A stretch of DNA of 63,968 nucleotides, filler included. It is 9 parts of 9 records of this genome, joined end to end, with 100 filler letters (N's around TTAATTAATTAA, not from the genome) between each part and the next. Parts side by side here need not be neighbours in the genome. Positions count along the whole stretch, not along the records: positions 1 to 7,486 come from SRR31156797_16337; 8 more parts are not named here. One strand, given 5' to 3'. This document shows positions 1 through 17,587 of this stretch, piece after piece. Position 1 is the stretch's first letter. Each line of letters opens with the position of its first letter. Under the pieces are notes generated by a model, which searched no databases, was not told the origin of the DNA, and saw nothing but the letters and a program-made list of their open reading frames with translations. The translations under genes were made by a program, and so were the position numbers.

Positions 1-904
1 CATTTACAGGAGATATCAAAACCGTCTTTTCTATTTTATCTTGTGCAGAGACAAGTTTTGACTCATATTTATTTATTTCTGTATTTAATTTTTGTAATTC
101 ATTAAAAACTTCTGCTTTAAAAGTTTTTATCTTCTCTTCTTTTCTATTTAAAAACTCTTGTACTGCATAGTTCAATCTTGGTATTGATAACTTTACACTT
201 AAGTATTCGCCTTCTAATTGGTTATACTCTTTTTTTATTTTTAATAATTCTACTTTTGATTTTGAACCTTTATCAACTAATCTCTTAATTGTATTCATCT
301 CTTCTTTTATTAATAGTAGTCTTTTTCTTAGTTGGTTTAATTGACTTCGTGATTCTACAAGCTCTTGCTTTTTTTGTTTATATTGATTATCTAAAATATT
401 TATAGTACTTTTTAATTCAGATACTCTTTTTTCAAAGAGAACCTCATCATTTACAGCAAAGCCATTTACTTTCTTTTTTAACTCTTCAGGGAAATCAAGT
501 TTGGGTATTTTTTTATTAATATCAATTTTTGATTCAGCTAATAATCTTATCTTTGTTACTAAAAGATGATTATAGATATTCTCACTTTCTTCTAAGCTTG
601 CTTGAAATCTAGTGGTATCTATTTTCATCAAAGCTTGCCCTCTTTTTATTGTATCACCTTCACTAACTAAAATATCAGAGATAATACCTCCGTCAAGACT
701 TTGGATAGTTTGTATTTTTTCTGAAGGTATTACCTTACCACTTCCCCTTGCTAGTTCATCTACCTCAGCAAAGAAAGCCCATGTAATAGCAGAGATAAAG
801 AATACAATAATTAAAAAGAATAGTAGAACCATTCTTTTTCCTACTTTTGCATTCTGTTGAGAATATAATGTATTAATAAAATTTACATCATCTTGATTTT
901 TCAT
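1..904 (-). CDS. HlyD/LapC-type T1SS membrane fusion protein (3'-truncated by window edge)
   Basis: Not in the ORF track. Manual translation from ATG 904 gives MKNQDDVNFINTLYSQQ...ITWAFFAEVDELARGSGKVIPSEKIQTIQSLDGGIISDILVSEGDTIKRGQALMKID, a typical HlyD N-terminus; it overlaps the ABC gene end. Confidence 0.92.
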   Translation of the reverse strand, partial: MKNQDDVNFINTLYSQQNAKVGKRMVLLFFLIIVFFISAITWAFFAEVDELARGSGKVIPSEKIQTIQSLDGGIISDILVSEGDTIKRGQALMKIDTTRFQASLEESENIYNHLLVTKIRLLAESKIDINKKIPKLDFPEELKKKVNGFAVNDEVLFEKRVSELKSTINILDNQYKQKKQELVESRSQLNQLRKRLLLIKEEMNTIKRLVDKGSKSKVELLKIKKEYNQLEGEYLSVKLSIPRLNYAVQEFLNRKEEKIKTFKAEVFNELQKLNTEINKYESKLVSAQDKIEKTVLISPVN

Positions 905-3089
905 CTTCTTTTAAAACTCTCTTTACTATTTTTTTTGAATTTCCAAAGGCAGATATTATTTGGGACTTTGGTCCATCTGCAATAACTTTTCCATCATCTA
1001 TAACAATTATTCTATCTACTAAAGATAACATTGAAGGTCTATGTGTTACAACTATTACTGTTTTATCTTCAATAATAGATGCTAATCTACTTTTAAAGTG
1101 TTCTTCACTTAAATCATCCATTGAATTAGTTGGTTCATCTAGTATCAAAATATTGGGATTAGAAACTATTGCTCTTGCTAAAGTTACTGCTTGTCTCTCT
1201 CCACCACTTAAACCATCACCTCTTTCTCCAACTATAAAGTCATATCCCGCTTGATGTTTACCTAAAAAGTCATGAACGCCTGCGATTTTTGAAGCCCTTA
1301 GTATTTGTTCATCACTTGCAAACTGATCTGAAATACTTATATTATCTTTTATTGTTCCCATAAATAAAAAAGGTTCTTGTGGAACATATCCTATATTTCT
1401 TCTTAAATCTACTGGGTCTATTTGCCTAATCTCTGTACTGTCAATTAAAATTGAGCCTTCTGAAGGTTCGTGCAGATTTAATAAAAGCTTGATAAGCGTT
1501 GACTTTCCTGAACCAATTTTTCCTATTATCCCTACTTTCTCACCTTTTTTTATCCGTATATTAATATCTCTTAATAATTGAAAGTTTTGTTTATAATAGG
1601 AAAAACTAACATTTTTAAATACTATGTCTCCATCAAGTGTTGGTCTACTTAAATAGTGTCCAGAAGAGTTTCTTTCAACTGGCATTTTCATTATCTCATC
1701 TATATTATTTAAAGATAGCATTGTTCTATCAAGTCTTATTATCATTCCAACTATTTGAGAAACTGGTGCAATAACTCTACTATTTAAAATCATTGCTGCA
1801 ATAATAGCCCCTAGTGTAATTCTTCCATCATTTGCTAAAAGAACTCCTCCTGCAACTATACCTATAGTTGATAGATGAGAAATAAATCCTACAAAATAGT
1901 TTACTACTTGAGATAAGTAGTGTGATTTGTTTCCATAATAAGATGTTTGAGATACTGAATTATTCCAGTGTGTTTGCATTCTATTTTGAGCTTTTACACT
2001 TTTTATAATCTCTAAACCTGTTACTGCTTCAGTTAAAACAGTTTGTTTAATCTGATCCTCTTTTGCTGCATTTAGAATAGTTTTCTTTAATGGTTTTTGC
2101 ATAATCCATGAAAAAAGAATGGCAACAAGCATAGTAACTAAAGACACATAACCTAAAGGACCACCTATATAAAAGATAATAGTTATAAATAAAACAACAA
2201 AAGGTAAATCTACAAATGCTGTAATTGTAGCAGTAGTAAAAAACTCTCTAACACTTTCAAAAGATTGTAATCTACTTACAAAAACTCCTGTTGAAGCAGG
2301 TTTAGCATTTAATTTTATATTTAGTAGCTGATTAAAAATAGCTGTTGACATTCTTATATCTGCACGTTTTCCTGCTTGTTCGATAAAATATGCACGCATT
2401 AGTTTTAATATAAAATCAAAAACAAGAACTAAAGCTATCCCAACTAATAGAACCATTAAGGTATCTACTGCTTTATTAGGAAGTACTCTATCATAGACAT
2501 TCATTGTAAATAAAGGAATAGCAAGGACAAAAGTGTTTATAAGAATAGCTGCTAATATCACTAGATAATAAATACCTAGGTTCTTCTTCATCGTATTCCA
2601 AAACCACTTTTTATTTTCTTCCACTAGAATATCTTCTTCTACTCTATTTTTAAAGTTGTATGCTGGTTTGATGATTAGCAAGTTTTTTGTATATTCACTT
2701 TTAAATTTATCTATGTCTACTCTTACTTCACCTAAACTAACATCTGGATAAATTAGACTTACTTTTTTTTCTTGCTCATCTATACTTAATATAATGCAAG
2801 CTTTATTTGTATTTAAAAGGGCAACCGCAGGAAGACTTAACTCAGAAATACTATCAAAATCTCGTATTGCTGATTTAACAATAAGCCCTATTCTTTTTGC
2901 TGATTCAATAAATAAATTAGGGGTCATTAATGACCCGTGAATTGCAAGACCAGAAACTAAAGATTCTCTTGATACTGCTCTTTTATGATATTTTGACAAA
3001 AACAGTAGGCACTCTACTAAAGTGTCTACCTTTCTATTTTCAAATAATTGTTCAAAGTCATAATTTAAGTTCTCTTCTTTAGTTTCCAA
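888..3089 (-). CDS. T1SS ABC transporter/permease with N-terminal C39-like domain (LapB/LssB type)
   Basis: PLFTMNVYDRV motif, Walker A GKIGSGKST, signature LSGGERQ, Walker B LILDEPT; TTG start. Confidence 0.95.
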   Translation of the reverse strand: METKEENLNYDFEQLFENRKVDTLVECLLFLSKYHKRAVSRESLVSGLAIHGSLMTPNLFIESAKRIGLIVKSAIRDFDSISELSLPAVALLNTNKACIILSIDEQEKKVSLIYPDVSLGEVRVDIDKFKSEYTKNLLIIKPAYNFKNRVEEDILVEENKKWFWNTMKKNLGIYYLVILAAILINTFVLAIPLFTMNVYDRVLPNKAVDTLMVLLVGIALVLVFDFILKLMRAYFIEQAGKRADIRMSTAIFNQLLNIKLNAKPASTGVFVSRLQSFESVREFFTTATITAFVDLPFVVLFITIIFYIGGPLGYVSLVTMLVAILFSWIMQKPLKKTILNAAKEDQIKQTVLTEAVTGLEIIKSVKAQNRMQTHWNNSVSQTSYYGNKSHYLSQVVNYFVGFISHLSTIGIVAGGVLLANDGRITLGAIIAAMILNSRVIAPVSQIVGMIIRLDRTMLSLNNIDEIMKMPVERNSSGHYLSRPTLDGDIVFKNVSFSYYKQNFQLLRDINIRIKKGEKVGIIGKIGSGKSTLIKLLLNLHEPSEGSILIDSTEIRQIDPVDLRRNIGYVPQEPFLFMGTIKDNISISDQFASDEQILRASKIAGVHDFLGKHQAGYDFIVGERGDGLSGGERQAVTLARAIVSNPNILILDEPTNSMDDLSEEHFKSRLASIIEDKTVIVVTHRPSMLSLVDRIIVIDDGKVIADGPKSQIISAFGNSKKIVKRVLKEDEKSR

Positions 3090-3101
3090 AGTTCATCCTA
3101 T

Positions 3102-4745
3102 CTATTTTGATACAGTTTTTCTGAAATATAAACCAGGAAATTTATTTGATAATCTATCTCTTAGTTTTACAATTTCATCTTTGTTATTTACATCATAAAC
3201 AATCACTGTATTAAATCCATTTGACTTAATAATTTTAGTTTTATACTCATCTCCAAGTTCAGAACTTGCCATTGCTAATTGACTATTAGCAGTTTGTTCA
3301 TTTTTAAATGATGCTAAAAATAATACATACTCATCATTTGATGATACTGTTTTTGTAGTAGTACCTTCATCTAATAAAGAAACTAACTCCTCATCAACAG
3401 ATGTATCTAAAGCTTTAACCTCTTTTTTCTCTACTTTTCTTTCACAGGTATTATTGTTTGCATATAAAACAGACTCTTTTAATTGAGACATACTATTAAA
3501 CATACTAAAATATGCTAAGTCTAAATCAAACTGCGCTGCTACTAAACTCTCTTTTGCACTATTTAAATCTCTTTCAATATTTAATACATCAATAAAAGTT
3601 CTTGTTCCACCTTCAAATTGATCTTTAAATATCGCTAGAACTTGTTCATTGTCTTTTATATATAGTTTTAACTCATCTATTTGTTTTTGAACTGAATTAA
3701 AAGTAGTGTATGCAGTTGTTGCTTCATCAATTACTTGTTTTGTTACAACATCTAACTCTTTTTGAACTTGTTCTAAAAATAGTCTTTCTCTTTGTTGTTT
3801 AGCTTTATCTATATTTCCATTATATAGATTATATTTTAATTCGATTCTCGCTGTATATAATTGAGTTCGTTCTTTATCTTCAATATTATCTCTATCATAA
3901 AGCCCTTGTGCTTTAAATTTTATTGTAGGATAAAAAGATGCATCTCTTTGACTTACTACAGCTCTTTGTTCCTTAATATTTACAACTTGTTCTAAAATCA
4001 AATTATTCTTTACAATAACTTGGTCAACATACTCTTTTAAAGTTTTAGGAACTAGGGAATAATCAATATAAGGTCGACAAACATCACCTTCTGGTTTAAC
4101 ACCTACAAATCTCTCATAAGAGCTTGAAGCAATTTTATAATTATTTGTTTGCTCATGCCATTTACTTTTTGTAAAGTGAATTTTTGCATTTACTTGTGAT
4201 TTTTGTAAAACTTCTCCACTAATTTCAGCAGTATCTTTTGCAGTTTTTAAATACTCTTCATAAATAAGCAAACTATCATTTGTCACATCTAAAGTATTTT
4301 GATATTTCACCATATTTAAATAAGCACTAATACTATCAAAGATTACGTTATCTACAATATTCTCATTTGCATAAGTATTGGATTTATCACGGAACCTTGC
4401 TTCATCCATTTCTGAAGTAGTTAAACCACCATCATAAAGTAGTTGCTCAAAATCTAGTTGAATATTCGGACCACCTGAGATATTTGAAGTTTTGTCTCCA
4501 TCATCGGGATTGATTTTTGTTTTTTTTGTTTGAATATATGTTGTTAAGTCTAATTTAGGATACCAACCACCTTTGGCTTCATCTAAATAGTACTTAAAAG
4601 CTTTGTTATTCTGTATAACAGAAAGGACTTTTGGATTTGTAGACATAGTAGTCTCGACGGTTTCTTTTAGTGTTACAGCATTCAAGCTTGCTGAGCCTAA
4701 TAGCATTACAAGAGGAATGCTAAGTTTTATTGCTAAATTTTTCAT
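3102..4745 (-). CDS. TolC/LapE-family outer membrane protein with C-terminal SPOR-like domain
   Basis: Signal peptide; TLKETVETTMSTNP, QLLYDGG, YNLYNG and QFEGGTRTFIDVLN motifs; C-terminal YVLFLASFKNEQTANSQ... extension. Confidence 0.9.
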   Translation of the reverse strand: MKNLAIKLSIPLVMLLGSASLNAVTLKETVETTMSTNPKVLSVIQNNKAFKYYLDEAKGGWYPKLDLTTYIQTKKTKINPDDGDKTSNISGGPNIQLDFEQLLYDGGLTTSEMDEARFRDKSNTYANENIVDNVIFDSISAYLNMVKYQNTLDVTNDSLLIYEEYLKTAKDTAEISGEVLQKSQVNAKIHFTKSKWHEQTNNYKIASSSYERFVGVKPEGDVCRPYIDYSLVPKTLKEYVDQVIVKNNLILEQVVNIKEQRAVVSQRDASFYPTIKFKAQGLYDRDNIEDKERTQLYTARIELKYNLYNGNIDKAKQQRERLFLEQVQKELDVVTKQVIDEATTAYTTFNSVQKQIDELKLYIKDNEQVLAIFKDQFEGGTRTFIDVLNIERDLNSAKESLVAAQFDLDLAYFSMFNSMSQLKESVLYANNNTCERKVEKKEVKALDTSVDEELVSLLDEGTTTKTVSSNDEYVLFLASFKNEQTANSQLAMASSELGDEYKTKIIKSNGFNTVIVYDVNNKDEIVKLRDRLSNKFPGLYFRKTVSK

Positions 4746-4829
4746 GATTTATCCTTTAAATTACAAATATCTCTCCTAAACCTTTAAGTTTTGTAAACTT
4801 TTTTATTACAATCAATGTAACACACATTC

Positions 4830-4853
4830 CTTTAAGATAACTTAAAGTATAAT
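4830..4853. promoter_or_regulatory. Palindrome CTTTAAG-N4-CTTAAAG abutting a TATAAT -10 box in the divergent tolC/regulator intergenic region
   Basis: Palindrome at 4830-4847 and TATAAT at 4848-4853 seen directly; function inferred. Confidence 0.45.
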
Positions 4854-4888
4854 TTTTAAGTGACATAATTTATTATAAATGAGCGATT

Positions 4889-5578
4889 ATGAATTACAAC
4901 TTGAAAGATATTTTAAAAAACTTGAAAATTGTTGTCGTAAGCAAAGAAGATAATATAGACAAGAAAGAGATTGATATTTTGAATCTTTTCTTTAAAGATA
5001 TTATTATAATAAATAGTGCAGAAAGAGCCCTTAAAAGATTTGTTTCATTAAGACCAGATGTTATTATCTGTGATATTGAACTTCCTCAAATGAATGGAAT
5101 TGAATTCTGTAAAATAATTAAAAAAATCAATAATAAGATTCCTATTATAATCTCATCTAAAAAAAGTAAGAAAAAATACCTTTATGAGATGATTAGACTC
5201 CAAATAGTAGATTTCATTAAAAAACCAATTAAAGCTGAAGAGTTTATTTTCACATTAAATGAAACAGCTAAATATATATTAAATGGGGGAGATATATCTA
5301 TTAAACTTAGTAATGGATATATTTATAGTTATAAAAGTAAAACAATTAAAAAAGATGATTCAAAAGAGATAAAACTTACAAAAAATGAATACCGCTTACT
5401 TGAATTATTATTAGGTAATAAAGAAAAAACACTTACAACAGAAGAGATATTTCAACATTTATGGGCAGATGAAGATATTACTTGTTCTGCATTTAAATCC
5501 TTAGTTTCTCGACTAAGAAATAAAATAGGTAAAGACTCCATAAAAAATAAGTTTGGTATTGGGTACCAACTAGACTAA
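4889..5578 (+). CDS. OmpR/PhoB-family response regulator (orphan)
   Basis: Receiver PDVIICDIELPQMNG...KP and wHTH LTKNEYRLLELL...LVSRLRNKIG...GIGYQL. Confidence 0.9.
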   Translation: MNYNLKDILKNLKIVVVSKEDNIDKKEIDILNLFFKDIIIINSAERALKRFVSLRPDVIICDIELPQMNGIEFCKIIKKINNKIPIIISSKKSKKKYLYEMIRLQIVDFIKKPIKAEEFIFTLNETAKYILNGGDISIKLSNGYIYSYKSKTIKKDDSKEIKLTKNEYRLLELLLGNKEKTLTTEEIFQHLWADEDITCSAFKSLVSRLRNKIGKDSIKNKFGIGYQLD

Positions 5579-5893
5579 AGATTCAACCTTAGTTTCATCT
5601 ACTAATATTTTAAGTTCACTGTCTATTGTAGATATATATGTTGCAAAGTTTTCATCATTATTTGAGGATACTTGTTTCCACTCCCCTTTTTCTAAAGAAG
5701 AATTACTCTTTGCTAAATCTAAGTTTAGGATATCATTATCTTGTGTATAGATTTTTAAAGTTTTATTATTATCAGCTAAAATTAATGCCTGAGCAGTATC
5801 TATTCCAGATAAAATATGCTCTGTTTTATAAAGACTAGTATCATTTTGTACTATTGCATTTTTAAGAATTTCTGCAATATTAATATCTTCCAT
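5570..5893 (-). CDS. Small protein homologous to the C-terminal (secretion-signal) domain of the upstream adhesin
   Basis: 16 of 35 identities, ungapped, with the adhesin C-terminus (HILS.I.....L...D...TLKI.....D..NLDL); RBS AAGGA/AGGT. Confidence 0.75.
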   Translation of the reverse strand: MEDINIAEILKNAIVQNDTSLYKTEHILSGIDTAQALILADNNKTLKIYTQDNDILNLDLAKSNSSLEKGEWKQVSSNNDENFATYISTIDSELKILVDETKVESLV

Positions 5894-5915
5894 ACCTAAT
5901 CCTTAATTTTTTAAT

Positions 5916-5924
5916 ATTATAACA
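5916..5924 (-). promoter_or_regulatory. Extended -10 promoter TGTTATAAT for the small ORF
   Basis: TGnTATAAT about 22 nt upstream of ATG 5893 and downstream of the adhesin terminator. Confidence 0.55.
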
Positions 5925-5935
5925 ATAATAAATAT

Positions 5936-5969
5936 AAAAAAAGCCTAACCAAAAAGGTCAGGCTTTTTT
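5936..5969 (-). terminator. Intrinsic terminator after the adhesin (bidirectional form)
   Basis: AAAAAAAGCCTAACC-AAAAA-GGTCAGGCTTTTTT. Confidence 0.8.
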
Positions 5970-5978
5970 ATTGTTCAG

Positions 5979-7484
5979 TTATATAACATTTACATCATTT
6001 TCAATTAATAAAGTTACGACATCTGAACCATTTGTTGAAACATAAGCTGTTTCACTCGCTGTACTTTGAGTTGAGTCTACATACCACTTTTCATTTATAG
6101 GAGTTCCATTATCATAGTCAGTTTGATTTCCTAAATCTAAATTTATACTATCACCATTATCTCCAACTATTTTTAATGTATTATCTTCATCTGTAATAGC
6201 AAGAATATCTTCTACATTAATATTTGAAAGTATGTGATCTCCACTATTCATATTGATTAAATCTAAAGAAGTAGGAACTGCATTAGAAGTTAAATCATTT
6301 GAAGCATCATCTAATAATCTAACAAAATCAATGTGATCACCATCAGTATCAACTTCGGCTAATGTTAATACTTGATCACTTGTATTAGGATAAGTAAGCG
6401 TATAAGAGGTAAAACTTATACCATTGTTATCACTTGCTATTGCTATTGAATCAATTGTTTGAGTTGATCCAGTATTATTTGTATAATCAAAACTAATAAA
6501 TAAATCTGAATCATCAGAAGCTCCTGTATGTGGAGCTGATTCATAGATTATATTTTGAGTATCATTTGAGTCAAATATTATTCCAATAACGGGATTGTTT
6601 ACTCCAGGGTCAGCATACTCTACAATAAAAGTATAAGTTTCCCCTGCTTCAATTGTTAATGGACTTATTAACGTTGTTGATTCAATATGTTGATAATCAT
6701 CATGTTTAATAACATCACTGCTTACATCAAAATTACTATCAGTTTCAATAACTGTACCACCACCAGTAACTTCTTCATCTATATCAAGGATATTAACAGT
6801 ATAGCTTTGAACATCTGTTAGCTCACCATCAGAAACTTGTATATCTAAAGTATATTCAGTAGTAGTTTCATAATCTAATTTATTTGATTCGTTACCTATG
6901 TAAGTTATATTACCACTATTATCAATAGCAAATTTATCTGTGTTGTTTAATAATGTGAATGTAAGAGAATCTCCATCTACATCTGTTGCATCAACTGTAC
7001 CTACATATGCACCAACAGCTGAGTCTTCAACTATATCAAAAGTATCAGCTTGTAACTCTGGTGGTTCATTATCACTTGTACCAGTAATTGTAATGGTAAC
7101 TGTCTCTGTATCAAAAGCTCCATGATCATCTACTGCTTTAACAGTATATTCAAGGATTAAAGTCTCACCCTCTTCTAAATAATCAAAGGCTTCATTTCCA
7201 GAATCAAAACTCCAAGATAAAGTATCCGTTGTTTCTGTATTATCTAAAATTGCAAGAGGAGAAAGAGATAACATCCCTATTACATCTTGGTTAGTTGGTT
7301 TAGACGTAGCTGTACCTCCTATTGAAACAGAATCAACAGAAGCCGAAACTAAATCTAAAATATCTACATCTGATACAGTAAGTTCTCCATCTGCAGTTAA
7401 TCCTAAATCTGTCTCTAATAAATCTGAAGTGTCAGGACCACCTGTAATAATTGGAGCATCATTTGTTCCTGTGATTGTCACTGT
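5979..7484 (-). CDS. C-terminal part of a large T1SS-secreted adhesin with VCBS repeat and cadherin domain (5'-truncated)
   Basis: VTITGTNDAP/VTITITGTSDNEPP repeats, FDYLEEGETL, cadherin motifs ATDVDGDSLTF and LDYET; Asp/Thr-rich; adjacent T1SS. Confidence 0.88.
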   Translation of the reverse strand, partial: TVTITGTNDAPIITGGPDTSDLLETDLGLTADGELTVSDVDILDLVSASVDSVSIGGTATSKPTNQDVIGMLSLSPLAILDNTETTDTLSWSFDSGNEAFDYLEEGETLILEYTVKAVDDHGAFDTETVTITITGTSDNEPPELQADTFDIVEDSAVGAYVGTVDATDVDGDSLTFTLLNNTDKFAIDNSGNITYIGNESNKLDYETTTEYTLDIQVSDGELTDVQSYTVNILDIDEEVTGGGTVIETDSNFDVSSDVIKHDDYQHIESTTLISPLTIEAGETYTFIVEYADPGVNNPVIGIIFDSNDTQNIIYESAPHTGASDDSDLFISFDYTNNTGSTQTIDSIAIASDNNGISFTSYTLTYPNTSDQVLTLAEVDTDGDHIDFVRLLDDASNDLTSNAVPTSLDLINMNSGDHILSNINVEDILAITDEDNTLKIVGDNGDSINLDLGNQTDYDNGTPINEKWYVDSTQSTASETAYVSTNGSDVVTLLIENDVNVI

Positions 7485-7486
7485 TA

Positions 7487-7586
7487 NNNNNNNNNNNNNN
7501 NNNNNNNNNNNNNNNNNNNNNNNNNNNNNNTTAATTAATTAANNNNNNNNNNNNNNNNNNNNNNNNNNNNNNNNNNNNNNNNNNNN
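7487..7586. other. Artificial contig spacer
   Basis: N-run + TTAATTAATTAA + N-run, 100 nt. Confidence 0.99.
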
Positions 7587-7588
7587 AC

Positions 7589-8317
7589 AATGGTTTCATT
7601 TTTCCCTCTTATGTGGAAGATGTCATGGGGCCGTTGCTGTTCGATTATGGATACGGACCGTTTCGATGGGTGTGTCTCAGCGGCAAACCGGGAGATTTGA
7701 AGAGAACAGATCGGGCCGCGATGGCCTGCATCGATCCCCATCGTCGTTTCCAGGACCGGGACAACTTCAATTGGATCCGTGACGCCCAGAAGAACAAGCT
7801 GGTTGTCGGCACCCAGGCACGCATTCTCTACCAGGACGCCGAGGGAAGGATGAAGATTGCCCTTGCTTTCAACAAAATGGTACGTCAAGGTGACATCGGT
7901 CCGGTGATGCTGGGCCGCGACCATCACGACACCGGCGGCACCGATTCCCCTTTTCGGGAAACGGCCAACATCAAGGACGGCAGCAATATCATGGCAGATA
8001 TGGCCGTACACTGCTTCGCCGGAAACGCTGCCAGGGGAATGAGCCTGGCAGCCCTGCACAATGGCGGTGGGGTCGGCGTCGGCAATGCGGTCAACGGAGG
8101 ATTCGGCCTGGTCTTGGATGGCAGCCGACGTGTGGATAAAATTATCCGCAACGCCATCTCCTGGGATGTGATGGTGGGGGTCGCCAGACGCGCCTGGGCG
8201 AGAAATCCCAATGCGGTGGAAACAGCGGATTCCTTCAATCGAAAAAACAAAACACGTGAACATGTCACGCTGCCCTATCCGGTCGATGAGGCGCTGATTG
8301 AAAAAGTTTGCCGGTGA
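7589..8317 (+). CDS. hutU: Urocanate hydratase, C-terminal part (long type; 5'-truncated)
   Basis: FPSYVEDVMGP, GYGPFRW, VVGTQARI, LGRDHHDTGGTDSPFRET, LHNGGGVG. Confidence 0.95.
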   Translation, partial: NGFIFPSYVEDVMGPLLFDYGYGPFRWVCLSGKPGDLKRTDRAAMACIDPHRRFQDRDNFNWIRDAQKNKLVVGTQARILYQDAEGRMKIALAFNKMVRQGDIGPVMLGRDHHDTGGTDSPFRETANIKDGSNIMADMAVHCFAGNAARGMSLAALHNGGGVGVGNAVNGGFGLVLDGSRRVDKIIRNAISWDVMVGVARRAWARNPNAVETADSFNRKNKTREHVTLPYPVDEALIEKVCR

Positions 8318-8371
8318 ATCCTATTTCTACCCGTGAGATCTAAACAACGAACCACAAACGACAAACAAGCC

Positions 8372-9625
8372 ATGTCAAACCTGATTCTAAAAAATGCCTC
8401 CCAACTCGTCACCAGCAGCGGGTTTTCCGCCAAACAGGGACAAGCCATGAGCGACCTGAAAATCATTGCAGATGGTGCGCTGGTCATCGAGAACGGGAAC
8501 ATTGCAAAGGTGGGGCGCACGAAAGAGGTTTTGAAAGGGCTCAACCTTTCACGCTACAGGGTCATCGATGCATCGGGAAAGGCTGTATTGCCAGGATTCG
8601 TGGATTCCCACACCCATTTCCCCTTTGCTGGGTATCGGCCCGAGGAATACAGCTGGCGCTTAAAAGGAACCCCATACATGGAGATCATGGAAAAAGGCGG
8701 GGGAATCTTCAATACCATGGCCGCCACCCGAAGAGCAGAACACCGGGAACTGCTGGAATCGGGGCGCAGGCGTTTGGATGCCATGCTGGCCATGGGGGTA
8801 ACCACCGTGGAAGGAAAAAGCGGGTACGGGCTGGACCTGGAAAACGAAATTAAACAGTTGGAGGTGATGGCCAGGTTGAACGCCGAACACCCCGTGGATA
8901 TCGTCTCCACGTTTTTAGGGGCCCATGCGGTGCCGCCGGAGTTCAACGGACGGGCCGGCGATTTTGTCGATTTCATGATCTCTATCGTACTGCCTGTCGT
9001 GGCCAAAAAAGGTCTGGCTCGTTGTTGCGACGTTTTTTGCGAAAAGGGCGTCTTTTCCGTTGAGCAGTCCCGCCGATTGCTGATGGCAGCGCAGGAAAAA
9101 GGGCTTGCGGCCAAGATCCACGCCGACGAAATCGTTTCCCTGGGCGGCGCGGAACTGGCTGCCGAATTGGGGGCGGTTTCCGCAGATCATCTGCTTCAGG
9201 CTTCGGATGAGGGGATAGACGCCATGGCAAGGGCCGGCGTCGTGGCTACCCTGCTTCCCGGTACCGCGTTCAGTTTGAAGGAACCCTACGCCAGGGGGCG
9301 TGAGATGATCGACCGGGGCTGTGCCGTAGCCCTGGCCACCGATTTCAATCCGGGAAGCTGTTTCACCTTCTCCATCCCCTTGATTGCGGCTCTGGCCGCG
9401 CTTCACATGAAACTGACCCCGGAGGAAATCGTTACCGCCCTGACCCTCAATGGCGCTGCCGCCGTGGGGCAGGCGCATAAAATCGGGAGTTTGGACGTGG
9501 GAAAGGCCGGGGACGTTGTCGTTTTGTCCTATCCTTCCTACCTGTTCATTCCCTACCATCTTGGCGTCAATATTGTGGAGACCGTTGTCAAGGGAGGCCA
9601 GGTGGTGGCCGGATCAGAAAAGTAA
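8372..9625 (+). CDS. hutI: Imidazolonepropionase
   Basis: PGFVDSHTH, EGKSGYGL, FLGAHA, DVFCEKG, HADE, ATDFNPG; ATG 8372 preferred to GTG 8333. Confidence 0.96.
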   Translation: MSNLILKNASQLVTSSGFSAKQGQAMSDLKIIADGALVIENGNIAKVGRTKEVLKGLNLSRYRVIDASGKAVLPGFVDSHTHFPFAGYRPEEYSWRLKGTPYMEIMEKGGGIFNTMAATRRAEHRELLESGRRRLDAMLAMGVTTVEGKSGYGLDLENEIKQLEVMARLNAEHPVDIVSTFLGAHAVPPEFNGRAGDFVDFMISIVLPVVAKKGLARCCDVFCEKGVFSVEQSRRLLMAAQEKGLAAKIHADEIVSLGGAELAAELGAVSADHLLQASDEGIDAMARAGVVATLLPGTAFSLKEPYARGREMIDRGCAVALATDFNPGSCFTFSIPLIAALAALHMKLTPEEIVTALTLNGAAAVGQAHKIGSLDVGKAGDVVVLSYPSYLFIPYHLGVNIVETVVKGGQVVAGSEK

Positions 9626-9649
9626 AGAAATGACGAGGGAAGAATAAAA

Positions 9650-10264
9650 ATGCTCAAGGATATGACACTGGAAGAATTCAGCCGTGCGTTGGCGGCTCGC
9701 AAAGCAGCTCCGGGAGGTGGCAGTGTAAGTGCGCTGGCCGGCGGTTTGGCGGCTGCCCTGTCGACCATGGTTGCGGAGTTTACGCTGGCCAAGGAGAAAT
9801 TTGCGGATCGAAGGCCGGAAATGGAGCGGCTTCGCGTTGACACCGAGCAATTACGGAATCAATTGATTACAGCCGTGGACCGGGATGCCCAAAGCTACCG
9901 TGGGGTGCTTGCCGCGTTCCGCCTTCCGAAAACAACGGACGAGGAGAAGCAAAGGCGAAGCGAAGCCGTTCAAAAGGCTTTTCGAAAGGCTACTGAGGTC
10001 CCTTTGGAGATCGCCCGGTATTGTTTGGATGTACTGACGTTAACCGAAGTTGCGGTCAAACAAGGGAACCCGGACATGATCACCGATGCCGGCGTGGGTG
10101 TTCTTCTGGCCCGTTCAGGCGCTCTGGGTGCCCTGATGAACGCGGAGTTCAACCTTGGCAGTTTGAAAGACGAATTTCTGGTTGCCGAGTTGAAAGAACA
10201 AATAAAAGAGGTCAAAGACGTTGTGATCCAGAAGGAAAGAGTACTCCTCGAATCGTTGGGGTAA
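9650..10264 (+). CDS. Formiminotetrahydrofolate cyclodeaminase family protein
   Basis: APGGGSVSALAG, AFRLPKTTDEEK, GNPDMITDAGVG; follows hutI. Confidence 0.9.
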   Translation: MLKDMTLEEFSRALAARKAAPGGGSVSALAGGLAAALSTMVAEFTLAKEKFADRRPEMERLRVDTEQLRNQLITAVDRDAQSYRGVLAAFRLPKTTDEEKQRRSEAVQKAFRKATEVPLEIARYCLDVLTLTEVAVKQGNPDMITDAGVGVLLARSGALGALMNAEFNLGSLKDEFLVAELKEQIKEVKDVVIQKERVLLESLG

Positions 10265-10418
10265 AGAAAAAAGCACACCCGGCCCGGGCGTTTCAAATCC
10301 CTTCGTACATAGGGTGGCATTTCTCACCTACACAGATACAATTTTGTTTTAAACTTTTTCGTTCGATTACAATTCTGAAAATCGATTGCTAAATCTTTTT
10401 AGACGATGGGTTTTTTTA

Positions 10419-10471
10419 TTGACAGCCCGCCGCTGATCTCGCTATGGTAAAGAAAAAACCGGTCGACCGGT
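10419..10471 (+). promoter_or_regulatory. Sigma70 promoter (TTGACA-N18-TATGGT) and 14-bp perfect palindrome ACCGGTCGACCGGT (putative TetR operator, 10458-10471)
   Basis: Seen directly upstream of tetR. Confidence 0.7.
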
Positions 10472-10522
10472 AGGATAAACATATATAAATAATTAAATTA
10501 AATATATAAAATGGCTTTTTAA

Positions 10523-11083
10523 ATGAAAAACAAAATTAAAAAATCAGCAATTAACCTCTTTTATAAAAAGGGCTACTTTGCCACCAGTCTAAGTGCCATC
10601 GCCAACGTTACAGGCATCCGGAAGTCAAGCATTTACCATCACTATCCAACAAAGGAAGACATTTTGCTGGATATTTTCAGAACGACGATGAATGACCTGC
10701 AAGACAGTTTGGAAAAGCGGTTGAACGATGCCACCGGTGCTGAAGAAAGAATCAAGGCGGTGATTTATTGCCATGTCCTTTTTCATATCAAGCAGCAGAA
10801 AGAGGCGATCATCGCCGACAGCGAACTGAGGGGGCTTACGGCAAAAAACTACAAGGAGATCATCCAGATGAGGGATGACTATGAAAAGGTCGTCTTGAAT
10901 GTTTTGGAGGAAGGCGTGGCAGAAGGCGTCTTTGCCGAAACGGACACAAAGGTTATCTCCTATGCCATCTTGTCTATGTGCACCTCGGTCTGTACCTGGT
11001 TCAAAAAATCTGGACGCTTGTCAAAGGAAGAGGTCGCAGATCTGTATGCCGGGTTCATACTGAAAGGACTGGCAAAAAACTGA
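10523..11083 (+). CDS. TetR/AcrR-family regulator (KstR2/PaaR-like C-terminus)
   Basis: HTH LFYKKGYFATSLSAIA...SIYHHYPTKEDIL; C-terminal WFKKSGRLS. Confidence 0.92.
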   Translation: MKNKIKKSAINLFYKKGYFATSLSAIANVTGIRKSSIYHHYPTKEDILLDIFRTTMNDLQDSLEKRLNDATGAEERIKAVIYCHVLFHIKQQKEAIIADSELRGLTAKNYKEIIQMRDDYEKVVLNVLEEGVAEGVFAETDTKVISYAILSMCTSVCTWFKKSGRLSKEEVADLYAGFILKGLAKN

Positions 11084-11182
11084 GATATCACTTTTCTAAG
11101 ATTAGCAAGCGGGAGGGGGTGAGAAAAGGAGGATGTTGAAATGAGATAGAAAATTTAACACCAAACACGCAAGGAGAGGAAA

Positions 11183-12220
11183 ATGGCTAAACGATTGGGA
11201 AGCAACATCACGATCTGCCTGGTATCGGTTTTTGTATGTTTGTTCGCTTTGTCCTTCATCGTAGACGATGCTCAATGCAAATCCTACAAATGGAAAATCA
11301 GCCAAGGAATTGCTGAAGATCATCCAGCCTCTGCCAGGTGCAAGCAGTTTGCGGAACTCGTTGGCGAAAAATCCGGCGGAAAGATCAATTTGACCTATTT
11401 CCCGTCGGGTGCTCTTGGCGACTGGATGGAGCAAATCGAAGCCAACCGAATGGGCACACTGGAGATCGGACTCAACGCAGGCTCCACCTCCTATGATCCA
11501 AGAACGAACCTGATGTTTATGCCCTACCTTTTCGCTACCTGGGATGAAGCCCGTGCCGCAATCGGGTCTAAAGGCTGGCTCACGCCAATATTTGATGACC
11601 TCTATTCACAGATCGGCCTCAAAGTCCTCGGTATCTATCTGAATGCATGGGACGGTATGGCTTATACGAAAAGGGTCCAAAAAGTTGCCAAAGTCCCGGT
11701 AGATTACGCGGGTATTAAAATGCGTGTGCCCCCCATACGAATTTTCGAAGTTTATGTGCCCTCGCTAGGGTTTATCTCTACGCCTATCGCCTATTCAGAG
11801 ACCTTTACAGCACTTCAAACAGGAATCGTCGACGCGAGATCCGCATGCCCGGCCGTTGAAGCCTACGTCATGCGCGATGCGCTCTCGTATTGGGTGGCGA
11901 CGCGCGATTGCTTTGAATATTGGTTTTTAACGATGAACAAAAAGCTTTGGGACTCTTTGTCTGAGGAAGACAAGGCGATTTTGAGCAGTGCCGCGGATAA
12001 AGTCATGGGTGACCAGGCGCTTGCCGCAGAAAAAGATGAAAATGAGTTCAAGCAGAAACTGATCGATGCCGGTGTCAAGGTCCATGAGGTGAACGACGAG
12101 GAGTGGAAAGCAGGGGCCAAGAGGGTACGTGAAAAAGCCTGGCCGGTGATTCAGGAAGAATTGCTAGGGTCCGTGCTGATGGAGAAAGTGAAAGCCCACG
12201 CAACCAAACTTCCCGAATAA
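11183..12220 (+). CDS. dctP: TRAP transporter substrate-binding protein DctP
   Basis: Signal peptide, FPSGALG, MPYLF, GIKMRVP, ETFTALQTGIVD. Confidence 0.92.
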   Translation: MAKRLGSNITICLVSVFVCLFALSFIVDDAQCKSYKWKISQGIAEDHPASARCKQFAELVGEKSGGKINLTYFPSGALGDWMEQIEANRMGTLEIGLNAGSTSYDPRTNLMFMPYLFATWDEARAAIGSKGWLTPIFDDLYSQIGLKVLGIYLNAWDGMAYTKRVQKVAKVPVDYAGIKMRVPPIRIFEVYVPSLGFISTPIAYSETFTALQTGIVDARSACPAVEAYVMRDALSYWVATRDCFEYWFLTMNKKLWDSLSEEDKAILSSAADKVMGDQALAAEKDENEFKQKLIDAGVKVHEVNDEEWKAGAKRVREKAWPVIQEELLGSVLMEKVKAHATKLPE

Positions 12221-12276
12221 TCCAATTTTTGTGTCCATAAGTCGGTCATTTGTCGTGCAACGATGGGGTTTATATC

Positions 12277-12304
12277 GTGAGGGCTGAAAGATATCGGCCC
12301 TCAC
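12277..12304 (+). terminator. Intergenic stem-loop after dctP
   Basis: GTGAGGGCTGA-AAGATA-TCGGCCCTCAC with no U-tail; more likely an mRNA-stabilising hairpin. Confidence 0.5.
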
Positions 12305-12319
12305 CTAAACAAAGGAAGA

Positions 12320-12868
12320 TTGGAACCCGCCATGTCATGGAACTCGATCGGTCAGGTTTTTAAAGTATCTGACCACTTTTTTGATAAAACCGCCAGTGTA
12401 CTGATCATCATCGGTGGCGTAAGCGTGACGCTGACAGTCGTATTGCAAGTCCTTTTGCGGTATATCTTCAAGGTTCCACTTTTTGGATTAGAAGAATTCT
12501 CAAGATTGATTGGCGTTTGGGTATACTTTATAGGTGCAATATTCGGGACCAAATATGACTCGCATGTGCAGGGTGACGTCGCGGGGAGAATTTTCTCCAC
12601 GGACCGATCAAGGTCTGTAATCAAGGCGATCGCCTGGACAATCAGTCTTTTCGTCTGTTTTCTCTTTCTCTACCACTCCGCGACATACAGCATCTGGCTC
12701 TACGGGACCGGTGAAAGAACCACGGGTTTATGGTGGCCGAGAATATACAGTGTCGGCAGTATGCTTTTCGGTGCCTTTTTCATGACCTTTTATAGCATCG
12801 CCAATGTGATCAAATATGCAGGGGCAGCGATAAGCAATACGAAATCTGCGACGGGGGGTGTAAAATGA
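12320..12868 (+). CDS. dctQ: TRAP transporter small permease DctQ
   Basis: Four TM segments, QVLLRY...GLEEFSR...HVQGD. Confidence 0.9.
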   Translation: MEPAMSWNSIGQVFKVSDHFFDKTASVLIIIGGVSVTLTVVLQVLLRYIFKVPLFGLEEFSRLIGVWVYFIGAIFGTKYDSHVQGDVAGRIFSTDRSRSVIKAIAWTISLFVCFLFLYHSATYSIWLYGTGERTTGLWWPRIYSVGSMLFGAFFMTFYSIANVIKYAGAAISNTKSATGGVK

Positions 12869-14166
12869 CGGTTGTCATCGTTGTAATGGCTCTGGTCGTC
12901 GTGATCATGTTGCTGGGGGTGCCGGTGGGATTTTCTTTTGGTTTGGGAGGATTTGCCATTCTGGCGATAACCGGACTTGACCCGCGGTTTGCCATACCGG
13001 CCGCATTCCGAAACCTGGAATCCTATACCCTGCTTGCCCTTCCTCTTTTTATCATGGCAGGCGGACTGATGCGCGACGCGGATATCTCCAGGCGCCTGAT
13101 CGCCTTTACAATGGCCTTTTTGGGCCGGATCAAAGGGGGGCTCGGGATGGTCTGTGTGGTCTCCTGCACCATCTTCGGCGCTATCTCCGGGTCCGCTTCC
13201 GCGGCCATTGCCGCCATCGGATCCGTAATGATACCGGAAATGGTCGATCAAGGATACTCAAGGGGATACTCCACGGGGCTGGTGGCAGCTTCGTCCATGT
13301 TGGCCCTGCTCATCCCCCCCAGCATTCCCATGATTGTTTTTGCCATGACGGCCCAGATATCCATTCTGGCTGCATTTCTAAGCACACTCATCCCGGGAAT
13401 TTTAATGATGACGGTATATTGCATTATCAACCTCATCATGAGCCGACGAATGAAGGCATTGAAGGTTGCCCCCAAAATGCCTCTCTCGCAGACAGTCGGA
13501 GAGGTCGGCCGTTCAACCAGACATGCGGGATTTGCCCTTTTCATGCCGGTGCTTGTCCTCGGAGGCATATACGGCGGCGTTTTTACACCGACCGAGGCTG
13601 CCGGGATGTCAGCGGTGTATGCCGTGTTTGTTGGGTTTGTCGTTTACAAAAAAATGACTTTGAAGGGGATGTGCAACAATATTAAAAATTCCATGGTGAC
13701 TTCGGGAGTCGTCATGATTCTGCTTTTTTTTATCCTCATGGTGAGCAGAATCATGGTGACCTACCAAGTTCCCCAACAATTGACAGAATTCATTTTCAGC
13801 TTTACGACCAACAAATGGCTCGTTTTGATGATGTTGAACGTCATCCTTCTTTTGATGGGCATGTTGGTGGACGATGTGTCCGGAAATATCCTTTCGGCAG
13901 CAATCCTGTTGCCGATTGCCAAATCCGTTGGCATTGATCCCATTCATTTCGCGGCTATTTCCGTTACCAATTTATCGTTGGGAAACATCACCCCTCCTTG
14001 TGCTCCCATGCTGTACCTGGCGGGTTTGATCGGTGGAAATTTGCCCCTCAACGAATATGTGAAACCGGCTTCATATTTCATGATTTTCGGTGCGCTCCCT
14101 GTTATTCTGGCCGTCACCTATATTCCTGAATTCGCATTGGTGCTGGTAAATCTTTTCTTAAAATAA
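12865..14166 (+). CDS. dctM: TRAP transporter large permease DctM
   Basis: LLALPLFIMAG, FGAISGSA, LIPPSIP, GVFTPTEA, GNITPP. Confidence 0.95.
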   Translation: MTVVIVVMALVVVIMLLGVPVGFSFGLGGFAILAITGLDPRFAIPAAFRNLESYTLLALPLFIMAGGLMRDADISRRLIAFTMAFLGRIKGGLGMVCVVSCTIFGAISGSASAAIAAIGSVMIPEMVDQGYSRGYSTGLVAASSMLALLIPPSIPMIVFAMTAQISILAAFLSTLIPGILMMTVYCIINLIMSRRMKALKVAPKMPLSQTVGEVGRSTRHAGFALFMPVLVLGGIYGGVFTPTEAAGMSAVYAVFVGFVVYKKMTLKGMCNNIKNSMVTSGVVMILLFFILMVSRIMVTYQVPQQLTEFIFSFTTNKWLVLMMLNVILLLMGMLVDDVSGNILSAAILLPIAKSVGIDPIHFAAISVTNLSLGNITPPCAPMLYLAGLIGGNLPLNEYVKPASYFMIFGALPVILAVTYIPEFALVLVNLFLK

Positions 14167-14169
14167 AAC

Positions 14170-14280
14170 AGTGCCCATTCAGAAATGAAGGCGTTTGGTC
14201 GAGAGCAAGGCTTGCGAAAATTTTTTTTGGAGGCATATGGATTGATAATCCGAGGATAAAATTTTGAGCGTAACGCAGAT
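14170..14280. repeat. Probable MITE-like dispersed palindromic repeat, cut by the contig end
   Basis: Non-coding, with internal symmetry (AAAATTTT twice around a GGATT-GAT-AATCC hairpin); the assembly breaks inside it; resembles from memory ~140-bp repeats of Desulfobacterales. Confidence 0.45.
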
Positions 14281-14380
14281 NNNNNNNNNNNNNNNNNNNN
14301 NNNNNNNNNNNNNNNNNNNNNNNNTTAATTAATTAANNNNNNNNNNNNNNNNNNNNNNNNNNNNNNNNNNNNNNNNNNNN
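14281..14380. other. Artificial contig spacer
   Basis: N-run + TTAATTAATTAA + N-run. Confidence 0.99.
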
Positions 14381-14766
14381 AAGATTGCTCTAACACTTGG
14401 TTTTTTTAGAGCAATTGTTCTATGGTCTAATTGCGTTTCTAATTTAGCGTTAATTTTTCTTTTATTTATGTCAAATGGTAATGTGTCATATTTTGCATCT
14501 CCAAGTATTTTGATTTCCTCTACTTGAACCTCTACGCCACCTGGTGCTTTTGGATTAGCTTCTCTTTTACCAACAGCCTCAACTGACATCTCTACTCTAA
14601 GTGTATCAGCCTGTTCTTTAGTACAAACTAACTGCATAACTCCTGTTTTATCTTTAAGAATAACAAAGTTAACCTGTCCAAGGCTGTTAATTTTATGTAC
14701 CCATCCACATACCTTTAATGTTTCCTCTTCTGATTTAAATACGTCTTTTACAAATGTTCTTTGCAT
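14381..14766 (-). CDS. aspS: Non-discriminating (archaeal/clostridial-type) aspartate--tRNA(Asn) ligase, N-terminal part
   Basis: OB-fold GWVHKINSLGQVNFVILKDKTG, NPKAPGGVEV, LDHRTIALKKPSVRAI; RBS GGAGGG; Asn specifier upstream. Confidence 0.82.
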
Positions 14767-14781
14767 GATCTTTCCCTCCTG

Positions 14782-14837
14782 AAGTGTTTTTCTAAAGTTG
14801 GAATGTTTTAATCCAACTTTGGTTTAGAAAAATACTT
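14782..14837 (-). repeat. Long inverted repeat directly 5' of the aspS RBS
   Basis: AAGTGTTTTTCTAAA-GTTGGA...TCCAAC-TTTGG-TTTAGAAAAATACTT (plus strand). Confidence 0.8.
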
Positions 14838-14975
14838 AATAATCTTTTAATATTAATTTTTTATCATCCTTTATAAAATATAAGGATAGTATTTTTACAA
14901 TTAAGAATAAACTGTAACTAGTCAGTTTATATCGGGGGTATCTGCAATTATTTATTTAATTTAAAAAATTACAAT

Positions 14976-15022
14976 AAAAAAATGCTCCCCACAATATCCA
15001 TTACAATATACGTGAAGAGCAT
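14976..15022 (-). terminator. Leader terminator of the aspS T-box
   Basis: Minus strand ATGCTCTTCAC...GTGGGGAGCAT followed by a U-tract. Confidence 0.8.
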
Positions 15023-15272
15023 AGTATTTTTAATTTTAATTAATATACTACTTAATAAGTTTGCTCGCTTCACTAAGTACGGAGTTTTACTCGATACTCG
15101 CCAACTGTAACGTATTGGTAACGTCTAAATCTACTAACTCTCAACTTGCCAGGTTGATAGCTTTTGGTTAGAAGCTCGGAAGGTGTTCTTCAATATAAGC
15201 GTCGTTGTCGGACTTTCACCATAACCGACTCGCTCTAAACTACTTCTTATATCTACTCTCCTCGTCATTGCC
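14976..15272 (-). ncRNA. T-box riboswitch leader with Asn (AAC) specifier; no canonical UGGNACC antiterminator bulge
   Basis: Stem I (about 15174-15272) has a GA/K-turn, AGUA/GAA S-turn, AG bulge, GGUGAAA loop and specifier loop GAAGAACA; Stem II has AGUA; IIA/B pseudoknot CGT-taCCAAt-ACG-ttacag-TTGG. Confidence 0.85.
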
Positions 15273-15360
15273 TTTTAAGCTACTAGAATTATATAATTCC
15301 AGTATTATATTCAATTGTTTTTAAGAGGTTTTATCTTTCTCGTCCTCTTTAGATAGGAAA

Positions 15361-15389
15361 AGTATACTATTTTTCTGGACAAGTGTCAA
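15361..15389 (-). promoter_or_regulatory. Sigma70 promoter for the T-box/aspS transcript
   Basis: TTGACA-N17-TATACT on the minus strand. Confidence 0.85.
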
Positions 15390-15627
15390 GAAATTTTTCC
15401 CCGTATATTTTCAATAAAATTTAATAATTTATTAAAGAAAACATATCAAATATAACTTGAGAATTAGTATTAAACAAATAACTCACTAATATTTAACATT
15501 AGTTTGCTAAAATAATTAAAAATAACACTTTAGCTTAGTATTAGATATACTATTTATTAATTATCTCATGTTGACTTTTTAATTAATAATGTTGTAAATT
15601 ATATATATAAAGGCAGTTGAAAGTAAG

Positions 15628-16416
15628 GTGACTCAAATGAAATTTATACATAGACTATTAATTTTTTTTCTGGTACTAATCTCAAGTGTAAAAGTAACTT
15701 TTTCAACAGAAACAATTAGTGCAATAGGTCACCATGACTATGCACCGTGGAATTGGGAACATAATGGAAAGTATATCGGTGCAGCAGTAGAAGTATCAGA
15801 AGTTTTATTTAAAAGACTTGGCATCGAAGTTGATGCAACTTTTATCGGTCCATGGAAAAGAGGACAAGAGTATATAAGAAGAGGTCATGCCGATCTGGTT
15901 GTTTGCGGTTTCATAAACGAAGACAGAAAAAGCTATTCCGAATTTATTATGACTCCTATGGGATTTATTGAGCAAGCTATCTTTGTAAAAAAAGGAAAAG
16001 AGTTTGAATTCAATTCATGGAAAGATTTGAGAAGTAAAAAAATTGGACTTGCTCTCGGAGTTAGTATCGGGCAAGAATTTGATACATTTCTTAAGAAAAA
16101 TACCATTGTAGAAAGAAGAAGAAATTATGAAATTCTTTTTAATATGTTAAATCACGAGAGAATCGACGCAGTTGCAATCGGTAGATATTCTGGAAGAGCT
16201 ATTCTTGAAACACTCAACTTACAGAACGATATTGTTGATTTAAATAAACCAATTTTAACTGGAAATCTATACATATTCATGTCAAAAAAATCTAAGTATC
16301 TACACACTCTCCCTAAAATAGAAAAATTCATTCAAGAAGATGGATATTATGAATGGGTTGAGGAATTATTAAATAAATACACTAAAATTTATGCGGAAAC
16401 TTCTGCTAAAAAATAA
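15628..16416 (+). CDS. Family-3-type extracellular solute-binding protein (orphan)
   Basis: Signal peptide, DYAPW, GPWKRG...GHADL, SWKDLRSKKIG, RIDAV. Confidence 0.8.
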   Translation: MTQMKFIHRLLIFFLVLISSVKVTFSTETISAIGHHDYAPWNWEHNGKYIGAAVEVSEVLFKRLGIEVDATFIGPWKRGQEYIRRGHADLVVCGFINEDRKSYSEFIMTPMGFIEQAIFVKKGKEFEFNSWKDLRSKKIGLALGVSIGQEFDTFLKKNTIVERRRNYEILFNMLNHERIDAVAIGRYSGRAILETLNLQNDIVDLNKPILTGNLYIFMSKKSKYLHTLPKIEKFIQEDGYYEWVEELLNKYTKIYAETSAKK

Positions 16417-16431
16417 TATTAAGGAGATTTT

Positions 16432-17520: not shown

Positions 17521-17542
17521 ACAGTATTTTTAAAGTAATCAT

Positions 17543-17586: not shown

Positions 17587-17587
17587 A

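Follow-up and report, generated by a model that had tools for sequence, protein, structure and literature searches.

Giant repeat proteins encoded near type I secretion genes can end in a terminal module of about 100 residues, which is represented by TIGR03661, the type I secretion C-terminal target domain of the VC_A0849 subclass, and engineered C-terminal fragments are used to study how giant adhesins are exported by type I systems. According to the relevant passages of a preprint (bioRxiv 10.1101/198937), the C-terminal 235 residues of the adhesin LapA were secreted on their own in a LapEBC-dependent manner, and the secretion of the C-terminal fragment was nearly abolished when LapA was locked in the channel. 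Here, we analyzed a window of 63,968 bases, i.e. the whole stretch of DNA under study, the first contig of which (window positions 1-7486, GC content 0.286) carries a small gene (5570..5893, minus strand) that starts with ATG and encodes a protein of 107 amino acids. This gene is located between the 3' part of a giant adhesin gene and a convergent response-regulator gene, adjacent to the genes of a type I secretion system, and its product is, judged from the alignments, a full-length stand-alone paralog of the C-terminal module of the adhesin. The small protein is probably a type I secretion cargo that has been reduced to the terminal module of the adhesin, and we assign a probability of roughly 0.6 to the reading that it is exported by the adjacent secretion system as a retention-free cargo.

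In a BLASTP comparison, residues 25-103 of the small protein aligned with residues 415-497 of the 500-residue adhesin fragment encoded in the window (26 of 83 identities, 31%, E 1e-6), which bears out the resemblance to the adhesin C-terminal end that a first-pass annotation of this DNA had proposed; the ungapped stretch with 16 of 35 identities reported there was also correct upon direct counting in both sequences. The homologous part of the adhesin is its C-terminal module of approximately 110 amino acids (5982..6311, minus strand), and the 3' part of the adhesin gene present in the window (5979..7481, minus strand, truncated by the contig end at 7486) additionally encodes cadherin-like and VCBS repeats. 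A match was also found in a 5932-residue protein, the last 105 residues of which align with residues 3-106 of the small protein at 45% identity (E 1e-22), so that the small protein corresponds to exactly one whole terminal module, the N-terminal helix included. Likewise, a profile of the small-protein family matched the C-terminus of the neighboring adhesin in genome G095 (E 4.9e-6 per genome), whose locus is 99% identical to the window locus in the small protein and in the adhesin C-terminus.

The C-terminal module of the giant adhesins of Arcobacteraceae represents an unnamed family, which is defined here by an alignment of 27 rows (A3). In this alignment, residues H26, I27, L28, S29, L46, I48, W72 and L97 are invariant or nearly so, and all 27 rows reach the last residues, i.e. 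the module ends at the protein C-terminus. The clade of stand-alone copies keeps the H-I-L-S motif, L46, I48, W72 and the terminal K-I/L-L-V/I-D-E stretch. As the module terminates giant proteins whose genes lie next to those of type I secretion, and in view of the published work on LapA, we infer that it is a putative secretion signal. The small protein itself has a mass of 12.0 kDa and a pI of 4.3, contains two glycines and no cysteine, and lacks a Sec-type N-terminus, and its AF2 model based on the 27-row alignment (pLDDT 81.8, pTM 0.67) consists of a helix at residues 6-15, predicted with lower confidence, and a confident alpha/beta domain at residues 24-107. A simple pattern scan detected no RTX nonapeptide motifs in the small protein or in the 500-residue adhesin fragment, which by this measure are not RTX proteins, and 28 motifs in the 5932-residue relative, the last one just ahead of its terminal module. 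A double-glycine leader peptide as used by C39 transporters was considered as well and is disfavored, since the 107 residues include only the two glycines, which are not paired, and the conserved part is a C-terminal domain.

Comparisons beyond this family yielded little. A protein atlas search with the small protein gave no usable match, the sequence comparison with solved structures returned only one chance-level row (E 0.34), Foldseek against the PDB found nothing at E <= 0.001 (best 0.67), and a wide VIA fold search reached a best Z of 3.5 with no row at Z >= 5. Among the VIA rows, C-terminal parts of type I cargo (lipase 2qua, CyaA 6sus and alginate epimerase 8ja4) appeared at Z 2.2-2.7, and serralysins were listed by Foldseek only (E ~0.8-1.8); these rows were no better than unrelated ones and nothing is therefore drawn from them.

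The small open reading frame is almost certainly a real gene that is maintained by selection. A 107-codon open frame has a chance of approximately 1e-4 at a GC content of 28.6%, and the frame is retained in diverged relatives. The pN/pS of the small gene ranged from 0.25 to 0.34 (one-sided Fisher p 5e-6 to 8e-8), compared to 0.29-0.60 for the adhesin C-termini and 0.08-0.23 for the regulator, and the NG86 dN/dS was 0.21-0.23 in the three pairs with unsaturated synonymous sites. The stand-alone copies have diverged down to 45% identity, and the regulator diverges in parallel, its identity being 55-58% in comparisons in which that of the small protein is 45-47%. In a 33-row tree of the module, the nine stand-alone rows formed a single clade (support 100/100, stem 0.78) apart from the clade of the neighboring adhesins, which suggests one duplication followed by descent with the locus. 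These results agree with the first-pass annotation, which had seen in the intact yet diverged frame an indication of selection over debris; two of the outcomes that it had set against this view, a dN/dS near 1 and homologs absent or disrupted in relatives, did not occur, the gene being intact in 9 of 9 loci. With regard to the alignments, the frameshifted sequence P0011 was left out of the profile alignment A2, L024, whose match is not at the C-terminus, was left out of the tree and of A3, L019 was left out of A3 due to its very long branch, and L022 failed the screen for frames ending in a stop.

The nine loci comprise the window, five species genomes and three metagenome contigs, and in all of them the adhesin gene, the terminator, the small gene and the convergent regulator gene follow one another in this order, with the small gene intact at the same place. 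The tail-to-tail arrangement is also kept in 9 of 9 loci, the end of the regulator gene coinciding with the 3' end of the small gene or lying just within it. In seven species loci lacking the small gene, the stop codons of the adhesin and regulator genes are 35-54 nt apart and a six-frame search of these loci revealed no remnant of the small gene, indicating that the small gene and its promoter represent an insertion of approximately 400 nt.

A word-indexed search retrieved ten proteins of 96-107 amino acids with 64-98% identity, two of which are named Halarcobacter hypothetical proteins, and a profile search of 1.84 billion representative proteins returned only seven matches at E <= 1e-3, four of them stand-alone (96-104 amino acids) and three at the C-termini of proteins of 599, 909 and 5932 amino acids. 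Species genomes were reached through the locus of a relative, Halarcobacter ebronensis (G001, locus L001). Within the family Arcobacteraceae, 22 of 184 genomes matched the profile and five of 184 (G001, G095, G089, G098 and G090) contain a short stand-alone frame. In 14 of the other 17 matching genomes, the match is located where a long frame ends (13 frames of 403-4128 amino acids and one frame of 210 amino acids truncated by a contig end), while the remaining three gave weak matches (E 0.0025-0.008) whose position at a frame end was not confirmed. All five carriers belong to the genus of G001, in which 13 of 25 genomes matched, five with the stand-alone form and eight only inside a long frame, and 12 gave no match. 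The stand-alone form was found in this one genus only, and the idea that the arrangement might extend across the Campylobacterota or be generic to Lap-type systems had to be abandoned.

The small gene has its own transcription and translation signals. A terminator scan of positions 4700-6300 returned a single site, with 0.3 expected, which is a strong intrinsic terminator hairpin 3' of the adhesin gene (5937..5969, minus strand) with 14 pairs followed by a T run (fold z -3.7). As read from the sequence, an extended -10 box without a -35 element, TGTTATAAT (5916..5924, minus strand), is located 22 nt ahead of the ATG at 5893, and an AAGGA ribosome-binding site (5900..5904, minus strand) is located 6 nt ahead of it. 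Both the separation of the two genes by a terminator and the small gene's own TGnTATAAT box and ribosome-binding site, as described in the first-pass annotation, were thus recovered. A sigma-70 scan that needs a -35 hexamer did not list the TGTTATAAT promoter; promoters of Campylobacterota commonly lack this hexamer. Upon inspection by eye, the TGTTATAAT box was also present in G001, G095 and G089, with TGGTATAAT in G090 and a weaker box in G098, and the intergenic sequence of 5 of 5 species contained the hairpin, the T run and then a TATAAT-like box. A purine-rich stretch resembling a ribosome-binding site was seen by eye at the position of AAGGA in G001, G095, G089 and G098 and was absent in G090. 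In the latter genome (locus L007), TGGTATAAT ends, also by eye, 7 nt ahead of the ATG of the small gene, which has no ribosome-binding site, and translation of this ortholog may start on a leaderless mRNA.

The 3' ends of the small gene and the regulator gene share 9 nt in tail-to-tail orientation (5570-5578), and no terminator-like site separates the two genes. On the plus strand, too, the hairpin at 5937-5969 folds and is followed by a U run (-17 kcal/mol, z -5.6), and it may also end the response-regulator transcript. With this overlap lacking a terminator and a hairpin that folds on both strands, the transcript of the regulator gene would run antisense through the entire small gene, and that of the small gene would enter the regulator gene. 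The two transcripts therefore probably overlap fully in antisense, and mutual interference between them is possible.

The type I secretion genes that adjoin the small gene occur in the same order in 8 of 9 loci, namely those with enough flanking sequence. In the window they encode the N-terminal part of an HlyD-family adaptor (2..904, minus strand, truncated at the window start), an LssB-family (LapB-type) ABC transporter for type I secretion, which has a C39-like domain at its N-terminus (888..3089, minus strand), and a TolC-family outer-membrane channel with a C-terminal SPOR domain (3102..4745, minus strand). The transporter scored 846 bits against TIGR03375 (cut-off 693) and hence is of the LssB/LapB type expected in LapA-like systems, and the G090 ortholog of the HlyD adaptor has a full length of 447 amino acids and matches TIGR01843. 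Genes for a LapG-like protease and a LapD-like receptor were found as adjacent pairs in 5 of 5 genomes carrying the small gene, with PF06035 and PF16448 above the cut-offs. The complete adhesin of G090 has 3290 amino acids with SAAGG at residue 112; searches of its N-terminus with a retention-module model and the family libraries gave no match. Taken together, the neighboring adhesin looks Lap-type.

Based on these comparisons, we propose that the terminal ~105 codons of the gene for a giant adhesin secreted by a type I system were copied once within one genus of the Arcobacteraceae (Halarcobacter), that the copy would have been inserted in the gap of ~35-54 nt between the adhesin gene and the convergent response-regulator gene, and that it would have gained its own start codon, ribosome-binding site and -10 box behind the adhesin terminator. 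The encoded protein consists of the folded C-terminal module only, without repeats, RTX motifs or an N-terminal retention module. Once made in the cytoplasm, it would be recognized by the LapB/LssB-type ABC transporter, the HlyD adaptor and the TolC-like channel via the same C-terminal features as the adhesin and would be exported completely in one step. With the same export system, the small protein would use the same channels as the adhesin; its export should consequently fall when surface-retained adhesin plugs the channels, and, when overproduced, it should compete with the adhesin for export. Candidate roles for such a cargo are a competitor or decoy in adhesin export, an indicator of channel occupancy and an extracellular partner; the primer and folding-nucleator functions suggested in the first-pass annotation are likewise only putative, and the suggestion that the small protein acts mainly by competing for, or reporting, channel availability is a tentative one.

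Several observations weigh against export as a retention-free cargo. The gene is absent in 20 of 25 species of the genus, seven of which keep the same adhesin-regulator locus, and the secretion system accordingly does not require it. In the alignment A3, two motifs that the adhesin copies retain, S-x-D-E-I-D-L-x-x-G-D and G-D-x-G-D, have been lost in the clade of stand-alone copies, and with the loss of both acidic/glycine motifs the stand-alone protein may no longer behave like the adhesin module. Searches of Pfam and NCBIfam gave no family for the small protein, for the C-terminal module of the adhesin fragment or for any of the 27 module copies. The lapG/lapD genes and the adhesin N-terminus were seen only in relatives of the window genome, and a search of sequencing runs gave three contig-only matches sharing 0.20-0.43 of words, with no RNA run among them. 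The C39-like domain of HlyB is said to engage the substrate outside the signal. In the consulted part of a review, transporters with C39-like domains are described as carrying large RTX cargo of >50 kDa (PMC8277102), by which a 12-kDa cargo with 0 RTX motifs would be atypical. Finally, a frameshift was noted after residue ~70 in P0011, one of the 16 distinct sequences of the stand-alone type. This sequence, from a metagenome contig of 2283 nt, is 96% identical to the window copy up to residue ~70, where the shift leads to a product of 96 amino acids, and it represents either a sequencing error or a disrupted allele.

These absences and the frameshifted copy would also fit a relic without function, left by a partial duplication or by the deletion of a second adhesin, the latter having been raised in the first-pass annotation, all the more as the small gene must have originated by such a duplication. 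A relic is nevertheless very unlikely in view of the selection (pN/pS 0.25-0.34, p <= 5e-6) and the chance of ~1e-4 for a frame that has remained open, in an AT-rich genome, in lineages whose synonymous sites are saturated; moreover, the gene has its own start, ribosome-binding site and -10 box, and the copies form a single, deeply diverged clade. The same start signals bear on a proposal of that annotation, a swappable C-terminal cassette. In this reading, the small gene, which directly follows the gene that it resembles at the end, would be a silent cassette recombining into the adhesin end like orphan CdiA-CT or Rhs tips. With its own ATG, ribosome-binding site and promoter it does not correspond to an orphan CdiA-CT or Rhs module, the protein identity to the adhesin end is only 31%, and the best DNA repeat with the adhesin 3' end comprises 23 nt at 83% and lies out of register. 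Since the gene carries its own start signals and shares no usable DNA homology, and the tree places stand-alone and adhesin copies in separate clades without indication of exchange between them, a cassette function is extremely unlikely. The arrangement of the 3' ends, which overlap by 9 nt with no terminator-like site between them and are kept tail to tail in 9 of 9 loci, raises the question of an RNA-level unit, in which the fully overlapping transcripts of the small gene and the regulator gene would interfere mutually and the peptide would be secondary; the only hairpin (5937-5969), which also folds on the plus strand, would let the regulator transcript cross the small gene, as such a unit implies. 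However, the protein sequence is subject to purifying selection, its conservation down to 45% identity has the pattern of a domain and seven related loci work without the small gene, and we strongly doubt this explanation.

Homology and selection would equally fit a cytoplasmic regulator that is not exported, in which the free module would bind inner-membrane secretion parts or another partner and gate adhesin export as a decoy or brake, and the clade-specific loss of motifs and the stem of 0.78 are in line with a change of function after duplication. Yet the last ~25 residues, among them the near-invariant L97 and the K-I/L-L-V/I-D-E stretch, are preserved in the form found in the adhesins, and the engineered LapA C-terminal fragment was, in the passages of the preprint consulted, exported and not retained (bioRxiv 10.1101/198937), which makes this alternative rather unlikely. 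A putative extracellular role outside the secretion process itself, such as binding of the exported protein to the distal tip of the adhesin or to the matrix, would suit a confidently folded domain (AF2) that is not a disordered tag and that is homologous to the outermost module of the adhesin; as the module has no recognizable ligand-binding family in the Pfam, NCBIfam and fold searches, we consider it quite improbable. A further variant combines export with regulation, namely a secretion-coupled sensor of channel occupancy in which the small protein serves as a proxy cargo without retention, a logic comparable to that of FlgM. Export would stop when locked adhesin plugs the TolC-like pores, and the protein would build up in the cytoplasm and feed back on the locus, either by binding a regulator or the transporter or through the overlapping convergent transcripts. 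Such a sensor appears unlikely. The score of 0.00 (mark 0.34) for a predicted complex of the small protein with the response regulator, obtained without controls or custom alignments, speaks neither for nor against binding of the two proteins.

The OmpR-type response regulator encoded convergently to the small gene (4889..5578, plus strand) keeps the probable phospho-acceptor aspartate in the context V-I-I-C-D-I-E-L-P. It has S-K-E-D in place of the usual N-terminal D-D pair, its Pfam receiver match begins only at residue 42, and no kinase gene was seen within the locus; the regulator may be atypical or orphan. In the TolC-family channel, the SPOR (peptidoglycan-binding) domain comprises residues 472-536 (Pfam E 1.3e-4), and in its G090 ortholog of 565 amino acids OEP was the sole match at E <= 0.001. 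Directly downstream of the HlyD gene in G090, a gene of >696 amino acids was observed in the same orientation (L028, 2-2089, minus strand), which had no Pfam or NCBIfam match. In two complete-chromosome records, L001 of G001 (1-12500) and L029 of G089 (12633-18600), the adhesin gene is broken up into several frames; L001 shows a split TolC gene as well, and in L029 approximately 6 kb without long open reading frames are located upstream of the adhesin. These split frames may be long-read assembly frameshifts or real decay.

The window is not one molecule; nine contigs are joined by N44-TTAATTAATTAA-N44 linkers (7487-7586, 14281-14380, 22194-22293, 27423-27522, 32625-32724, 40078-40177, 49653-49752 and 58812-58911). 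The GC content of the contigs ranges from 0.29 to 0.52, with three near 0.29-0.30, two at 0.37-0.39 and four near 0.49-0.52, and the window looks like a mixed-organism bin or a metagenome record. Genes of different contigs should therefore not be taken as neighbors.

In the literature searched, supplements of the cited papers aside, no description of a gene for a stand-alone type I secretion domain was found, and a natural, selected and separately transcribed gene consisting of the signal domain only was not met in such a locus; the passages on frpC-like genes in the RTX review describe size variants, not signal-only genes. The claim of the first-pass annotation that no component like this had been described therefore stands for natural genes in that literature and has to be qualified, as both an engineered fragment (LapA HA-C235) and a counterpart from type IX secretion (PorA) have been published. 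If the small protein is exported, ~105 residues without RTX repeats would suffice for a LapB-type system, and it would represent a natural minimal tag as well as a natural competitor for, or reporter of, channel availability; if it is regulatory, it would be the first feedback element of its kind for type I secretion. Its occurrence in five of 25 species of one genus, together with related loci that work without it, suggests an accessory refinement and not a general component.

In comparison with LapA-like (BTLCP-linked) systems, the locus shares the LssB-family transporter, the HlyD adaptor, the TolC-like channel and the giant repeat adhesin, and the genomes carrying the small gene share the lapG-lapD genes and, in the G090 adhesin, the alanine-alanine-glycine motif near residue 112. 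It differs from them in the small paralog of the C-terminal module, which was not described for such systems in the literature searched and which lacks the repeats and the retention module of LapA-like adhesins. A similar reduction was obtained with HA-C235 of Pseudomonas fluorescens, which likewise consists of the C-terminal secretion region of an adhesin alone, without the retention module, and which, in the passages of the preprint concerned, is exported by LapEBC and blocked by channel plugging; the small protein is likened to it by context and not by sequence similarity to the end of LapA. HA-C235 is, as described there, a laboratory construct of 235 residues that is identical to the end of LapA, while the small protein is natural, has its own transcription signals and is a diverged paralog of ~105 residues kept by selection. 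The module also resembles TIGR03661 in being a conserved unit of ~100 residues that forms the extreme C-terminus of giant repeat proteins encoded in the vicinity of type I secretion genes, but neither this nor any other NCBIfam model was reached at E <= 1 by any of the 27 module copies (0 of 27 for TIGR03661), and the small protein and the adhesin fragment did not match TIGR03661 at E <= 1 either. As a counterpart in regulation, the portions consulted of two reports describe that the C-terminal domain of PorA, a type IX secretion protein of Porphyromonas gingivalis, binds the sensor kinase PorY and activates the expression of secretion genes (PMC7712824, PMC12152298), and a secretion-coupled sensor as outlined above would be the type I secretion counterpart of this logic. 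PorA, as far as those portions describe it, is a small cargo whose secretion domain has a second, regulatory role, and a two-component gene is also present in the locus of the small gene; PorA, in contrast, belongs to another secretion system, its secretion domain is unrelated, and it additionally contains an N-terminal domain and a Sec signal.

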